In this document: positions 1 through 33,781 of the stretch, in pieces
Layout of the letters: each line of letters begins with the position of its first letter
Numbering within the stretch: position 1 is the stretch's first letter
Assembly: GCA_003554565.1 (NCBI GenBank)
Contig: PWGR01000175.1
Span: 1 to 34,159 of the forward strand
DNA: 34,159 nt
Origin: Clostridia bacterium
Lineage (GTDB): Bacteria; Bacillota; Sulfobacillia; SLMV01
Reading direction: 5' to 3'
Made by a program: the position numbers and the translations under genes
Notes under the pieces: model-generated
Told to the model about the DNA's origin: nothing
The model's input: only the letters and a program-made list of their open reading frames with translations
Databases searched by the model: none

Positions 1-113
1 TCGACTACTGGCGCAAACAGGACCTGATGTTCTTGACTGATCGCTACCTGCTACTTCGTCAACGTACATGAACCGCCGGATGCGGACCCGCATGTCCGGT
101 GGTGTGGGGGGAC

Positions 114-131
114 GGCGGGGGCGACCCCGCC
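114..131 (-). terminator. GC-rich hairpin 15 nt downstream of the proS stop (possible terminator, no clear U-tract)
   Basis: Minus strand reads GGCGGGG-UCGC-CCCCGCC (7 G:C pairs). The tail that follows is C-rich rather than U-rich. Confidence 0.3.
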
Positions 132-146
132 TCCTACCCGATTGAT

Positions 147-22419: not shown

Positions 22420-22986
22420 TCACCCTCTCTTGCAAAAATTCTTGAGCATGCGTTTCCCGTCTTGGGTCAGTATCGACTCGGGATGAAACTGCACGCCTTC
22501 CACAGGGTGTTCTCGGTGCCTGATTCCCATCATGACTCCTTCGGAATCCCGAGCGGTTACTTGAAGTTTTGGGGTCAGCGTTGCCTCATCGATGATCAGC
22601 GAGTGATATCGTGTCGCCATAAATGGATTGGATACGTCGTGGTATAAGGCACCCCCTTCATGAGTGATGCGGGAGGTCTTTCCGTGCATGATCACGGGGG
22701 CAGATCTCACTTTGCATCCATAAGCCTTACCAACGGCTAGATGACCGAGGCAGACACCAAGAATGGGAATCTCTGAACCCAAGGTGCGGATGAGTTCGAC
22801 GCTGATGCCGGCCTCCTCTGGTGTACCTGGGCCAGGAGAAATGAGGATGTGTTGTGGCTTCATAGCCCCGATTTCACCTACTGTGATCTGGTCATTGCGC
22901 ACAACATGCAGTTCCGCTCCCAATTCCCCGAGATATTGCACCAGGTTGTAAGTGAAGGAGTCGTAGTTATCCAGGACAACAATCAC
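22420..22986 (-). CDS. trpG: anthranilate synthase component II (glutamine amidotransferase)
   Basis: The class I GATase triad context is present (GVCLGH, HPES). The GTG start overlaps the trpE stop (GTGA). Confidence 0.93.
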   Translation of the reverse strand: MIVVLDNYDSFTYNLVQYLGELGAELHVVRNDQITVGEIGAMKPQHILISPGPGTPEEAGISVELIRTLGSEIPILGVCLGHLAVGKAYGCKVRSAPVIMHGKTSRITHEGGALYHDVSNPFMATRYHSLIIDEATLTPKLQVTARDSEGVMMGIRHREHPVEGVQFHPESILTQDGKRMLKNFCKRG

Positions 22987-24467
22987 GGGAGCACACTCCC
23001 CTCGGCCCGCTCCAGGGCGGCGAGTAAACCGCCTGCCTTGCTGAGAGTCTCTTCATATTCGCTTTGCGGTTCGGAGTCAGCCACGATTCCGGCGCCAGCT
23101 TGGATATAAGCGCGACCGTCCTTGATGACTACGGTGCGTATGATGATGCAACTATCCAGATTACCCGAAAACCCCAGGTATCCCACGGCACCTCCGTACG
23201 GGCCTCGTTGATCTCGCTCCATTTCGGCAATGATCTCCATAGCCCGCACCTTGGGAGCCCCGGACAAAGTCCCGGCAGGAAAACAGGCTTTGAGGGCATC
23301 GATGCCATCCTTGTCTGGACGTAACTTTCCCTCTACCTGAGATACGAGGTGCATGACGTGTGAATACCGCTCAACGTCGAGCAACTCGGGGACCCGGACG
23401 CTTCCGTATTGTGCGATGCGACCGACATCGTTGCGGCCGAGATCCACAAGCATGACGTGTTCGGCGCGTTCTTTTTCATCATTTCGCAGATCTTCTTCCA
23501 ATAGCTGATCTTCAGCGTCATCTTGACCCCTTCGCCGCGTGCCGGCGAGCGGTCTCGTCTCCACCACGCCATCCACTACTCTCACTAGAAGCTCTGGCGA
23601 CGAACCAACCAGCGTGACATCAGGTAAATCGAGATAGAAGTTGTAAGGAGAGGGATTGAGTGAGCGCAAGTGCCGATAGACTGTGAAGCTGGAGGCGCTG
23701 AGACGAGTTTCTAGTCTTTGCGAGAGAACCACCTGAAGGATGTCTCCAGCTCGTATGTAGTTACGGGCACGCTGCACGCTGGAAGTAAAATCCTCTCTAC
23801 GCACATTGCTGACTGGTTCAAAGGATGTTGTTGGCGGTTTTTCCTCGGATGGAGGAGATGGTTCTTCCATGCGCTGCAAAATTTTCTGCACTGTTTTTTC
23901 GGCGTGACGATAAGCGCCCTTTGGATCCTGTCCCGGAAAGGTATTAACAATCAATTTGATACGGTTGGTGGCATGATCAAAAGCTGTCACCAACCGCGAC
24001 ATGATGAACTGACTGTCTGGCAGATCGACCGGCTGGCCGGCAGCAGTAGGGATGTCTTCAATGTGAGCGGCCATTTCATAACCAAGGTATCCCACGGCGC
24101 CACCGAAGAATGGAGGTAGGTGTTCGCGGGCAAAGTCGAGGGTCCGTTGGCCCGGAGTGTAGTAGTTGGTCCAGGCCCGCAGGGCATCGAAAGGATCGTC
24201 GGGCAGCTTGGGTTCATCCTGTCCCGTCACTTCTGTGCGGCCCTCCCGAATGGTGAGGGTTGCAAATGGATCAGTGCCGATGAAGGAATGGCGTCCCACT
24301 TGTGCTCCCCCGGCCACACTCTCCAGTAAATATGAGGGCGCATCACTACTCAACTTGCGATACAAGGATATCGGAGTATGCTCATCAGCTATGATATCTG
24401 CATAGACGGGGACGACGCCTCCCTCTCGGGCCAGCTGACAGTATGTTTCTGGTTCTGGACATAACAT
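22983..24467 (-). CDS. trpE: anthranilate synthase component I
   Basis: The LESV, GAVGYLG and GAGIVADS motifs are present. The ATG at 24467 lies 8 nt after AAGGAG. The listed ORF extension to 24815 is the T-box leader. Confidence 0.93.
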   Translation of the reverse strand: MLCPEPETYCQLAREGGVVPVYADIIADEHTPISLYRKLSSDAPSYLLESVAGGAQVGRHSFIGTDPFATLTIREGRTEVTGQDEPKLPDDPFDALRAWTNYYTPGQRTLDFAREHLPPFFGGAVGYLGYEMAAHIEDIPTAAGQPVDLPDSQFIMSRLVTAFDHATNRIKLIVNTFPGQDPKGAYRHAEKTVQKILQRMEEPSPPSEEKPPTTSFEPVSNVRREDFTSSVQRARNYIRAGDILQVVLSQRLETRLSASSFTVYRHLRSLNPSPYNFYLDLPDVTLVGSSPELLVRVVDGVVETRPLAGTRRRGQDDAEDQLLEEDLRNDEKERAEHVMLVDLGRNDVGRIAQYGSVRVPELLDVERYSHVMHLVSQVEGKLRPDKDGIDALKACFPAGTLSGAPKVRAMEIIAEMERDQRGPYGGAVGYLGFSGNLDSCIIIRTVVIKDGRAYIQAGAGIVADSEPQSEYEETLSKAGGLLAALERAEGSVLP

Positions 24468-24640
24468 AGTTCTTGCTCCTTTCAGCGAAGTTAGGACGGA
24501 ACAAAAAAACGTCCGCCCCCGACGGGGACGGACGTTACCGCGGTACCACCCTGTTTGGGTACCCGGGCCACCGAATGGTGGTCCCGTCAAGACCCCTCTC
24601 ACCAAGGTGCGAAAATGTGCATGGCCGATATCCTCTGTAT
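24468..24640 (-). promoter_or_regulatory. proximal T-box element of the tandem trp leader, with terminator
   Basis: The T-box core is AGGGUGGUACCGCGG (24538-24552). The terminator CGUCCGUCCCC-GUC-GGGGGCGGACG plus U7 spans 24502-24535. A stem I distal module reads UGGUG-AGAGG-GGUC...GACC-CACCA. The specifier could not be assigned with confidence. Confidence 0.7.
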
Positions 24641-24915
24641 AAACAAAAAACCTCCGGTCCCCATGGGACGGAAGGTTCCGTGGTGCCACCCATTTTGAAG
24701 CGCATGCTGCGCTCTCTTCGGCCAGATGCGATCTCACACCTGCCTCAATATAACGGTAGAGGTTCCGGCTCAGCCTACACGGCGTACGCTTTCGGCTTGC
24801 AGCTTGCGGGCCCATTCACCATCATCCTGAGCATCGGGCTTTCACTAACCCCGACTCGCTACGACTCGGATTTGATGGATACTTCTCCCGCGCATCGCAT
24901 TTTACATATTTCAGT
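24641..24915 (-). promoter_or_regulatory. distal T-box riboswitch (Trp, UGG specifier) with terminator
   Basis: The stem I base is GCGGG/CCCGC, with AGAAGUA on the 5' side and GAA-UGG-G on the 3' side (UGG at 24812-24814). The distal loop is GUUAGUGAAAGC. The T-box core is AUGGGUGGCACCACGG (24678-24693). The terminator is followed by UUUUUUGUUU (24641-24677). Confidence 0.85.
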
Positions 24916-31584: not shown

Positions 31585-32586
31585 TCAGGACTCGTCAGAA
31601 TTAGCAGGTCCCACGTGTTTCCATAGAGTAGTGGCAGCCGCTCCCGCTGAAAGAACCAGGGGAAACCAGAAGGTGACCAGACGGGTCAGGAGGGCCACCG
31701 CGAGGCCCTCGGCCGGGGTCAATGTCCCACGCGCCAGCATGATTGCCATTGAACCCTCAAAAGTTCCCAGCCCCCCGGGAGTCAACGGAATCATACTGAG
31801 CACGTAGGCAGAGTAGGTGGAGACGACAACATTCAGTATGCCCGCATCAAGTCCGAGCATCGATGCCACGAGGTATACCTTGACCGGATAGAGCATCCAG
31901 ATGAGGGCGGAGACTGCGAGCAAGATACCGCGCTCGCTCCCGGAGACGAGATACCGTGAGTACTGCGCCGCCTCCCCGACTTGTGCCACTGTCCGACGTA
32001 ACACCGCTGAGAAGGCGCCCCGCAACCCGTCATGCTCAGACTCGGACCCATCGGGGGCGGTGCGGACATATCCTTCTTTATGGATAAGACGGAAAAAGAG
32101 GGCGAACACAAAAGCCAGAATGAGGAACGAGTACACAACCCACAATGAGAGATATTGCGTGGACACCGACGTGGCGACAACTGGAACCAGGATGGCCAGA
32201 AAAGGCAGGAGGGACAGATATTTGTGCGCCATCGCCGCACCGAGCAGCTGTCCCCCGGGAAGCCCTGTGGCCCGGCGAGAGAGGTAGATCTTTGCTGCCT
32301 CGCCCCCGACCTTCACGGAAGGCGTTACACTCTCCACAAAAGCCCCCGACAGGTGGATGACAAACGCATGGGAGAAGCTGATATTCGCCCTCAGATTGAC
32401 CAGCAGCCGATACCACTGGTATGCACTCATCGCCAGGGTGACGACCTGCAGAAAGCAGAGTAGTGCGAGGGTTAGGGAGTCGGCCTCGCTTACTGCCCAT
32501 GCCACTTCGTCGCCACCGAAAATGAGGACAAAGATCCCCACAACGAGAATGCCCAATGTCCACAAAGATGCGGTCCTGATATCCAT
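31585..32586 (-). CDS. flippase-like / lysylphosphatidylglycerol-synthase-TM-like (UPF0104) integral membrane protein
   Basis: It has about 8 TM segments and the AFVESVTPSVKVGGEAAKIYL motif typical of the LPG_synthase_TM family. The ATG at 32586 follows AGGGGA. Confidence 0.8.
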   Translation of the reverse strand: MDIRTASLWTLGILVVGIFVLIFGGDEVAWAVSEADSLTLALLCFLQVVTLAMSAYQWYRLLVNLRANISFSHAFVIHLSGAFVESVTPSVKVGGEAAKIYLSRRATGLPGGQLLGAAMAHKYLSLLPFLAILVPVVATSVSTQYLSLWVVYSFLILAFVFALFFRLIHKEGYVRTAPDGSESEHDGLRGAFSAVLRRTVAQVGEAAQYSRYLVSGSERGILLAVSALIWMLYPVKVYLVASMLGLDAGILNVVVSTYSAYVLSMIPLTPGGLGTFEGSMAIMLARGTLTPAEGLAVALLTRLVTFWFPLVLSAGAAATTLWKHVGPANSDES

Positions 32587-32659: not shown

Positions 32660-32680
32660 TGATAATAACAATCATTATCA
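32660..32680. promoter_or_regulatory. Fur-family-like operator (TGATAAT-N7-ATTATCA; two overlapping 12/14 matches to the 7-1-7 Fur box)
   Basis: The + strand GATTATGATAATAACAATC matches 15/19 positions of the classical Fur consensus GATAATGATAATCATTATC. The site abuts the predicted -10 of the flippase-like gene. Confidence 0.5.
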
Positions 32681-32708
32681 ATCTAGCACCGCGTCCCGCC
32701 CCAGTCAA
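32680..32708 (-). promoter_or_regulatory. candidate promoter of the flippase-like gene (TTGACT-17 nt-TAGATT)
   Basis: On the minus strand the -35 is at 32703-32708 and the -10 at 32680-32685. Confidence 0.4.
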
Positions 32709-32736
32709 CGGGTGCTTCATCCAGCATTTTCTGATT

Positions 32737-33539
32737 GTAGAGTAGGCCATTGGCCTCACGGTTTAGGGCAATGTTTGTGTTCACTGTTTGCCCGCCCTTT
32801 CGTCTGCGGGTGTCACAATATCTCACCCATGTCGTGCAGCCAACGGCCCCTCGTCAAACCGTGCATGAGGTGCTACCTCACACGGCTTTCACCACGCGTT
32901 CACCAAACGGCATTACGCTTTCGCTTGGCCGTCCAGTACAGTGCCCTCCGAAGTTCTCACACGCCGCGATGTCGGGTGGTATTAGCCCTGTCGGGCACTC
33001 ACCGGTGCTTCCCCTCTTCGGACACATCGCGCTTCCTCGGGTCCTTCCCTCAGGTCGAGTTATGTTGTCTCGACCCTGCCAGCGGTACTATTACCCGATC
33101 CGAATCCCTCTCGCCAGGCTATCCCTTCGTGGGTCTCACTTATAGATAGCCCCGTTTCGGCGAGTAGGGCCTCCCCCGCTTTCCTACTGTGCCTTCTCCA
33201 CATGCCGCTCCCTATACACCGGGGAGGCCGCGGACATCTTCTCCCTGCCGCTCAGTCCACGATCCTGCCTTCGCCCAAATGGCTGAGGCTCGGCCCTCCC
33301 TGCACCAGCTCTCCCAGTCATTCGCGCCGGTCCTGCAGTGACGATGCATCTATGGGATTCCCTTGTGGTACAGCCTGTGGATTCGCCTCCGCTCACGGAC
33401 TGGGTTCTGGAGCGTTTGTCAGGTCGCTCAGACACACTGATCTCTCAGCATGCCCGACCTCAGGCTATCTGGCATATTCAGGGTGTTACCAGAACGACCT
33501 CCTTTCAGGTCGTTGACATCAATAGGTGTCGGGGCACAC
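32737..33539 (-). mobile_element. ORF-less group II intron (self-splicing ribozyme), about 803 nt
   Basis: The 5' end is GUGUG. EBS1 GCCAUU and EBS2 CUGCAG are complementary to the 5' flank AAUGGC and CUGCAG. Domain V is consensus-like. J5/6 is 3 nt. Domain VI has a bulged A at 32743, and the 3' end reads ...CCUACUCUAC. Many GNRA-capped helices are present. No ORF for an RT/maturase exists (details in findings). Confidence 0.75.
32856..32888 (-). ncRNA. group II intron domain V
   Basis: The sequence is AAGCCGUGU-GAGGU-AGC-ACCUC-AU-GCACGGUUU. It forms a 9-bp lower helix containing the AGC triad, a 2-nt 3' bulge and a 5-bp upper helix. This is the same layout as the consensus GAGCCGUAU-GCGAU-GAAA-GUCGC-AC-GUACGGUUC. 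Confidence 0.8.
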
Positions 33540-33586
33540 GCCATTCCCTGCAGTTCTATGTTGCCATCTACATCAAAGTGAGGGCT

Positions 33587-33781
33587 CTAACATAATGCGC
33601 CTACTCTACTCTTATAGTCGAAATAATCACTTTCCCATTGAAGTATGCCGGGCGTGATATGCGTCCAGGGCCGGCCAAGGAGGAGGTCCGCAGAAGACAG
33701 AGCATAGACATGTGGCTGAGGTGCGCCGGGCTGAGCGCCCGCAGCCGAATTGCCCATCTCTTGCTGGATGTACTGCATCAT
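33587..33781 (-). CDS. hypothetical small protein (64 aa)
   Basis: The ATG at 33781 lies 9 nt after GGAGGA. No family was recognised. The N-terminus is low-complexity (AAGAQPGAPQP). Confidence 0.4.
   Translation of the reverse strand: MMQYIQQEMGNSAAGAQPGAPQPHVYALSSADLLLGRPWTHITPGILQWESDYFDYKSRVGALC

Follow-up and report, generated by a model that had tools for sequence, protein, structure and literature searches.

A compact group II intron without its own maturase gene in DNA of a Clostridia bacterium and its probable mobilisation in trans

In bacteria, group II introns without an open reading frame (ORF) are regarded as rare, and they nearly always reside together with related introns that encode an intron-encoded protein (IEP) (PMC4424553). 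The ORF-less TeI3 introns of T. elongatus carry a deletion in subdomain DIVb and possess remnants of the N- and C-terminal IEP sequence, while DIVa, the critical IEP-binding region in subgroup IIA introns, is conserved; these introns are mobilised by the IEPs of related introns (Mohr et al. 2010, PMC2882425). Another ORF-less bacterial group II intron is C.te.I1 from Clostridium tetani (PMC4424553). In this study we analysed contig PWGR01000175.1 of a Clostridia bacterium (assembly GCA_003554565.1; the whole contig of 34,159 bp is called the window in the following), which contains on its minus strand, from 33539 to 32737, a complete group II intron of 803 nt. It fits a known, though seldom catalogued, kind of element: IIB introns of bacteria whose reverse transcriptase (RT) gene has been lost and which rely on a helper. 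Sequence comparison and predicted structure place it as a IIB-type intron in the RF02003 structural family, without an RT/maturase gene of its own. An initial annotation of this DNA had proposed an ORF-less bacterial group II intron outside any recognisable gene, and this proposal is supported by the conserved core, the exon-binding sites (EBS) and the searches with the flanks; all of its coordinates were reproduced.

The intron resembles the TeI3 introns in being ORF-less through a deletion in domain IV (DIV), in the retention of IEP remnants and in the existence of near-identical copies at several sites. However, the TeI introns represent another structural and IEP lineage, and the TeI4h IEP possesses an endonuclease (En) domain, which is missing from the IEPs of the relatives of the window intron. 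The window intron differs further in that only two copies are known and its contig encodes no helper, in the non-GNRA loop of its domain V (DV) and in its domain VI (DVI) of 113 nt. C.te.I1 is likewise an ORF-less group II intron of a bacterium, but no related IEP accompanies it in the genome, its 5' splice site is used in an altered way, and the gene context in which it is located shows alternative splicing, whereas the window intron has canonical termini and evidence of recent copying. The RF02003 introns, including one from B. thuringiensis, share with it the architecture of domain I (D1), the IIB type with EBS3 and the 3' end CUACUCUAC; many of them have an extended DVI, and their IEPs are of the RT-X type without En domain. 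In contrast to them, the window copy lacks an IEP, is only 45-53% identical to them in domains I to III (D1-D3) and scores 54.6 bits instead of approximately 100-113 bits. ORF-less introns nested within IEP genes (twintrons) were reportedly described in Methanosarcina by Dai and Zimmerly in 2003. The twintrons of Methanosarcina and T. elongatus have a parallel in soil relatives of the window intron that share its UAGC loop in DV and are nested in IEP genes, but the window intron itself is not nested in another intron and its target is without detectable coding homology.

As the initial annotation had stated, the intron starts with GUGUG at 33539-33535. It ends with CUAC at 32737, so that both termini agree with the 5' GUGYG and 3' AY of group II introns, and in the relatives the homologous 5' end reads G(U/C)G(U/C)G. 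The ORF listing also agrees with the earlier statement that no ORF longer than about 145 aa exists between 32.7 kb and the window end. A comparison with Rfam had been suggested, and in a scan of the whole window with curated thresholds RF02003 (group-II-D1D4-4, covering D1) matched 33507-33363 with 54.6 bits (gathering score 49, E 1.5e-9). RF00029, which covers DV and DVI, matched 32890-32737 with 39.3 bits (E 8.8e-6) when the final 1.76 kb were scanned at permissive settings, a score marginally below its threshold, and the 3' limit of this match is the very base that had been annotated as the intron's 3' end. The matches to D1 and to DV-DVI stand in the right order and at the right spacing.

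The unconstrained minimum free energy (MFE) fold of the 803 nt has -330 kcal/mol (z = -5.4 against shuffles). Six branches leave its outermost multiloop (intron positions 6-366, 367-438, 442-503, 508-646, 648-687 and 688-800), and this predicted fold is the canonical wheel of six domains around a central loop. The predicted D1 extends from 33534 to 33174, with the part matched by RF02003 inside it. Domain II (33173-33102) and domain III (33098-33037) are tentatively assigned from the corresponding MFE branches, which align with conserved blocks of the family.

It is practically certain that the element is a group II intron. That its motifs are chance likenesses in structured non-coding DNA is scarcely conceivable: the RF00029 score slightly under the gathering threshold fits such a reading, but two independent covariance-model matches in correct order and spacing, a full-length homology to approximately 45 introns (among at least 120 loci) and the covariation of EBS1, EBS3 and DVI contradict it, and the comparative data have effectively refuted it already. 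The initial annotation had named a lack of homologous copies with compensatory changes as grounds for giving up the intron; covariation was found in EBS1, EBS3, DVI and D1.

To collect relatives, species-representative genomes were scanned with a DV pattern that was degenerate and too general, and at least 120 loci (L001-L120) were obtained. A D1 profile made from the first relatives recognised approximately 45 of the loci listed as introns belonging to the same structural family. Their hosts include Paenibacillus, Bacillus, Nitrospira, Brocadia, Clostridia and Chthonomonadales. Those relatives that were checked with Rfam matched RF02003 with 78-113 bits, and most relatives encode a protein of 430-450 aa with RVT_1 and GIIM domains and without an endonuclease domain. 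The best match to an annotated protein (58% identity) belongs to a 1.97-kb plasmid intron of B. thuringiensis (RF02003, 113.6 bits), which matches B.th.I3 in its size and description. The latter has been placed in group g2, which comprises former class F or unclassified introns with En-less proteins and IIB-like RNA (Toro & Martinez-Abarca 2013, PMC3552965). A class F/g2-like placement of the window intron might be taken as a lead, drawn from the proteins of its relatives and not from a phylogeny. A blastn search of the intron against plasmids gave matches to DV only.

The initial annotation had proposed an EBS1 in a hairpin loop, pairing with the intron-binding site IBS1 (AAUGGC, 33545-33540) at the end of the 5' exon. 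This hairpin, GCCU-CAGCCAUUU-GGGC, lies at 33289-33273, and its EBS1 GCCAUUU (33283-33277) can form seven base pairs with the 5' exon GAAUGGC. Across the aligned family, at least five pairs form between the homologous loop and the intron's own 5' exon in 25 of 27 relatives, with a mean of 6.1 contiguous base pairs compared to 3.2 with the exons of other introns. The loop covaries with the exon, and the proposed EBS1-IBS1 pairing is confirmed. A single column out of 600 is complementary to the first base of the 3' exon in all nine of nine introns; in the window intron it is U33214, which faces A32736 as IBS3. This one EBS3 column fixes the 3' splice site independently and shows an exon recognition of the IIB type, and the predicted EBS3-IBS3 pair is the one that, with EBS3 in the D1 coordination loop, defines subgroup IIB.

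The proposed EBS2 has fared less well. The complementarity of CUGCAG at 33338-33333 to CUGCAG at 33553-33548 (candidate IBS2, exon positions -14 to -9) is perfect over six nucleotides. However, the family has its EBS2 elsewhere: in at least 16 relatives the complement of exon positions -7 to -14 stands directly 5' of a GNRA-capped hairpin, and CUGCAG lies approximately 15 nt 5' of that position. It aligns with a conserved CUGCCG/CUGCAG element, or else falls into an insertion of approximately 20 nt that is private to the window intron. A palindrome of six bases that matches there carries no significance by itself, and this EBS2 is therefore an unproven candidate.

The consensus structure of D1 was derived without the window intron, which nevertheless keeps 52 of the 63 consensus pairs (83%), 16 of them through changes on both sides. 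Most of the seemingly broken pairs belong to one helix that is aligned correctly by Rfam and shifted by MAFFT. Judged from these comparisons, the ribozyme looks maintained rather than decayed.

A similar picture emerges for DV and DVI. An alignment of 11 introns with long DVI contains 38 consensus pairs, and 94% of the cells are paired. All 13 DV pairs are kept, and compensatory changes occur in 18 of the 38 pairs, of which 16 are among the 25 pairs of DVI. None of 500 shuffles reaches the observed score, and slid controls are paired in 36-46% of the cells. These results confirm the DVI that had been drawn from 32852 to 32740 with a bulged A at 32743. This A is invariant and unpaired in the alignment. 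Six nucleotides follow it, which makes it nucleotide seven counted from the 3' end, within the 7-8 nt typical of a branch point, and lariat splicing at A32743 is predicted. The linker J5/6 was correctly read as GAC (32855-32853), the relatives having either GAC or GAU. For DV (32888-32856), RF00029 supports the location and the two-nucleotide bulge (AU, 32866-32865); the catalytic AGC is, however, the basal one at 32887-32885 and not the AGC of the terminal loop, which had been named as the catalytic triad.

The terminal loop of DV, UAGCA, is unusual. GNRA occurs in 117 of the 120 genome relatives listed and UAGC in none of those. Yet the UAGC loop is common to 13 metagenome loci, including multi-copy ORF-less introns and two introns with IEP (L131 and L134), and because it recurs in this way it is tolerated. 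The UAGC-loop introns were considered as one clade together with the window intron, and this was rejected, as their D1-D3 identity of 51% is no higher than that to other members of the family.

The DVI of 113 nt (32852-32740), which is branched, belongs to a type that the window intron shares with L014, L016 and L041. A tail of at least 60 nt at this place was found in 18 of the 120 loci listed. In a subset of the RF02003 family a long branched DVI of 110-121 nt, supported by covariation, replaces the usual stem of approximately 35-40 nt; its members include L014, L016, L041, L042, L048, L053, L056, L076, L079, L094 and others, both with and without ORF. In DV-DVI the window intron is 72-77% identical to L014, L016 and L041; its D1-D3 identity to the same three is the lowest in the family (45-48%). 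This mosaic similarity hints at a mosaic ancestry, which might be due to recombination between introns or to uneven evolutionary rates.

One could assume that the function of the maturase has been taken over by the enlarged DVI or by other insertions, and that the intron persists as a ribozyme only and splices by itself, independently of any IEP, like C.te.I1. The compact and very stable fold (z = -5.4) and the unusually long, covarying DVI are in favour of this, and one independent bacterial intron has been documented (PMC4424553). However, the long DVI is also present in the IEP-encoding introns L016 and L041 and is therefore no substitute for the protein, the start region of the IEP gene has been kept in DIV (see below), and a new insertion at a second site would be left unexplained. 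We consider this possibility quite improbable.

DIV comprises approximately 139 nt (33032-32894, the MFE branch 508-646) and is recognisable by alignment to the IEP-bearing relatives. The initial annotation was right that an RT/maturase ORF is missing, but the 34-nt hairpin to which it had reduced DIV is the distal part only. On the 5' side of DIV, the sequence at 33019-32975 can be aligned to the beginning of the IEP genes in L066, L089 and L045, from their ribosome-binding site through the GUG start into the first codons: a GGAGG-like Shine-Dalgarno site (GAGGGG) is followed by GUG and approximately ten codons, and small indels break the frame and put a UAA in frame. The 3' side has 85% identity with the last IEP codons and the downstream DIV strand of L131, the IEP-bearing intron from soil. 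Between its 5' end and DV the window intron has 651 nt, compared to approximately 1850 nt in the ORF-bearing relatives. These alignments indicate that the RT/maturase gene was lost through a deletion inside DIV.

Such losses are not restricted to the window intron. In 10 of 33 loci with a complete 5' end and DV, a small sample selected by the DV pattern, only 600-980 nt lie between the two, which points to ORF-less introns or large deletions. The earlier remark that ORF-less copies are uncommon agrees with the literature (PMC4424553); in the sampled family, however, 10 of 33 complete introns are ORF-less, a far larger share than the rarity stated in reviews would lead one to expect. Of the lost gene, the ORF-less introns L014, L001 and L089 have retained the initial 25-40 codons, and the differing lengths suggest independent deletions, the breakpoints being unmapped. 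In L041 (4145-5894, minus strand) a part of the RT domain is removed by an internal in-frame deletion, leaving 375 aa instead of 433, which gives this intron the appearance of an intermediate in the decay of the ORF.

The most direct evidence on mobility comes from a second copy. A search for further copies had been recommended, and a metagenome scan with the UAGC-loop DV (13 loci) revealed one. Locus L130 (SL_8KL_010_SEDDRAFT_10013306, 5.4 kb), judging by its record name apparently from soda-lake sediment, contains the whole intron with 802 of 803 nucleotides identical. The surroundings of this copy are unrelated to the window. Outside the intron, the two loci share only 49 nt, namely positions -36 to -1 of the 5' exon (33575-33540 in the window) and +1 to +13 of the 3' exon (32736-32724). 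The 5' segment has four mismatches, with -15 to -1 identical, and the 3' segment has one; the similarity stops at +13. The flanks are thus more diverged than the intron (5 of 49 versus 1 of 803 positions, Fisher p = 3e-6). At the insertion point the target reads TGATGTAGRTGGCAAYATRGRACTGCAGGGAATGGC on the 5' side and AATCAGAAARTGC on the 3' side, and the predicted ligated exons would join ...GGAATGGC to AATCAGAAA. Most simply, these data would mean that one intron was recently inserted into two targets which are older and related to each other, and whose size is that recognised by group II ribonucleoproteins. An unoccupied copy of the target is not present in the window, neither the target nor the UAGC DV turned up in scans of viral contigs, and the locus of the nearest homologue (P0002, L121) is not syntenic and shows no empty site.

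The similarity of 36 nt upstream and 13 nt downstream could also mean that the mobile unit is a block of 852 bp or more, which was moved by recombination or by another mobile element, and an IS1634-like transposase gene (DUF4277) does adjoin the L130 copy. However, divergence in the flanks significantly exceeds that in the intron, the block ends (approximately -36 to +13) where target recognition by a group II intron is expected to end, no inverted or direct repeats bound the element, and there is no insertion sequence at the window copy, so that we regard this explanation as very improbable. The transposase gene, with its DUF4277 N-terminal domain, is located at L130 2178-3830 (plus strand), approximately 160 nt from the 5' exon and on the opposite strand. 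A perfect palindrome of 30 nt stands just past the 3' exon of this copy (L130 1119-1148).

The initial annotation had left a choice between trans-mobilisation and decay, and the evidence (the 802/803 copy and the more diverged flanks) favours trans-mobilisation. Because the intron encodes nothing, a helper protein would have acted in trans. The window intron would then be a non-autonomous IIB group II retroelement that is transcribed from an upstream promoter. The RT-maturase of a related intron elsewhere in the genome would bind the RNA, the probable site being the DIVa-like region of the start codon that has been retained, and would aid its splicing as a lariat at A32743. The resulting ribonucleoprotein would reverse-splice into DNA sites that match EBS1 and EBS3, and perhaps EBS2. 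Other En-less introns prime from nascent DNA at replication forks, and since the proteins of the relatives lack an endonuclease domain, the same way of priming may be assumed here. To this full account of recent trans-mobilisation we assign a probability of about 0.65.

There are several points that weigh against it. The 34-kb contig, to which the search was confined within this genome, encodes no helper IEP; the IEP-bearing introns with a UAGC DV (L131 and L134) are from soil metagenomes and were not linked to the window organism, and the only other intron on the contig (71-142) has a different DV type. The two copies come from metagenomes and may belong to different genomes. No EBS2 is identifiable at the family position, where the window intron has AAUGAC (33322-33317), which is not complementary to its exon, and the non-GNRA loop could weaken the docking of DV. 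The RF00029 score lies 0.7 bits under the gathering score of 40, which is explained by an insertion of approximately 95 nt within DVI, and the RF02003 score is about half that of the relatives (55 versus approximately 100-113 bits). Splicing and transcription are predictions from the sequence.

Some of these points are shared by another explanation, according to which the intron is a relic, either splicing-competent or inert, that is no longer mobile, and its copies were left by a helper that is now lost. The contig without IEP, the non-GNRA DV loop together with the unclear EBS2, the covariance-model scores that are low compared to family members and the location in non-coding DNA, where nothing selects for splicing, speak for such a relic. 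However, the copies differ at one of 803 nt while their 49-nt targets differ at five positions, 16 compensatory changes maintain D1 pairs, and EBS1 and EBS3 match the flanks perfectly. Moreover, the UAGC loop is no private lesion, given its presence in 13 metagenomic introns including multi-copy ones. A relic is therefore unlikely, though it deserves to be taken seriously, and we prefer recent trans-mobilisation.

The intron lies approximately 150 nt upstream of a gene for a flippase-like / LPG-synthase-TM protein (start at 32586). A promoter-like site, TTGACT-17-TAGATT (32708-32680, minus strand), stands between the two and is the likely promoter of this gene. Directly downstream of its -10 hexamer there is a palindrome, GATAATGATTGTTATTATC (approximately 32660-32710, minus strand), which we take to be Fur-box-like, with 16 of 19 matches to the consensus. 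The initial annotation had stated that the intron interrupts no gene, and the ORFs of the flanks and upstream have neither a Pfam match nor a homologue among 5.8 billion proteins; because of this the designation as intergenic stands. A 64-aa upstream ORF with its read-through was considered as an interrupted gene and discarded on the same grounds. A derivation of the target from part of an IEP gene, the situation of the soil twintrons, was also considered and rejected, as tblastn and blastn gave nothing significant.

In both copies the junction reads ATGGC followed by AATCAG, and the ligated exons contain ATG GCA ATC AGA AAR TGC, which would encode MAIRKC... (window 33540-33590 and 32700-32736; L130 1168-2045). 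Read in the ATG GCA frame, two of the five substitutions in the flanks change no amino acid, and a possible upstream indel of 12-15 nt would be in frame if it comprises 12 nt. The MAIRKC reading frame has no homologue and is probably a coincidence.

The homologues of the neighbouring genes lead to haloalkaliphilic anaerobic Firmicutes, which is consistent with the apparent soda-lake origin of L130. The window contains one other intron, of a different kind: positions 71-142 (plus strand) are the DV-DVI 3' end of a second group II intron (RF00029, 45.4 bits) with a CGC-type DV and a DVI of 36 nt, which is cut by the contig edge. The start of the contig inside this intron suggests that a multi-copy element broke the assembly, and the first 70 nt of the window may encode the C-terminus of its IEP. 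Furthermore, a T-box leader (RF00230, 98.9 bits) was found at 24661-24904 (minus strand), upstream of a long minus-strand ORF (frame 22983-24815), which presumably encodes an aminoacyl-tRNA synthetase or another amino-acid-related protein.

Among the soil metagenome loci with a UAGC DV loop, L125-L129, L133 and L135 are ORF-less introns of 718-720 nt that are located inside the RT-0 region of the IEP genes of other introns. They are twintrons and in effect hyperparasites. The exon around the twintrons of L125, L126, L128, L129, L133 and L135 reads ...KPFVIDKWVVWE before and AYLRVKANKGAAGVDG after the insertion point. L124 has an additional RF01999 D1 match 180 nt downstream.

The value of the window intron is that it offers a clean and compact case: it measures 803 nt, comparative evidence defines its boundaries, and there is direct evidence that it was copied recently. 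Its host is an uncultured, Firmicute-like haloalkaliphile. For ribozyme structural biology and for the engineering of small targetrons, the atypical DV loop and the long branched DVI are of possible interest. The proportion of ORF-less introns in the sampled family, about 30%, bears on the underestimate of bacterial introns in IEP-based catalogues. One may speculate, though we ourselves are inclined to doubt it, that an ORF-less and trans-dependent existence is a common and persistent lifestyle in the RF02003 (class F/g2-like) family and no rare accident, with some members as hyperparasites in the RT genes of other introns. The window intron would then be an actively spreading case that has been structurally remodelled, with its non-GNRA DV loop, its DVI of 113 nt and a possibly relocated EBS2. 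If this were true, IEP-driven surveys would undercount bacterial group II introns substantially.

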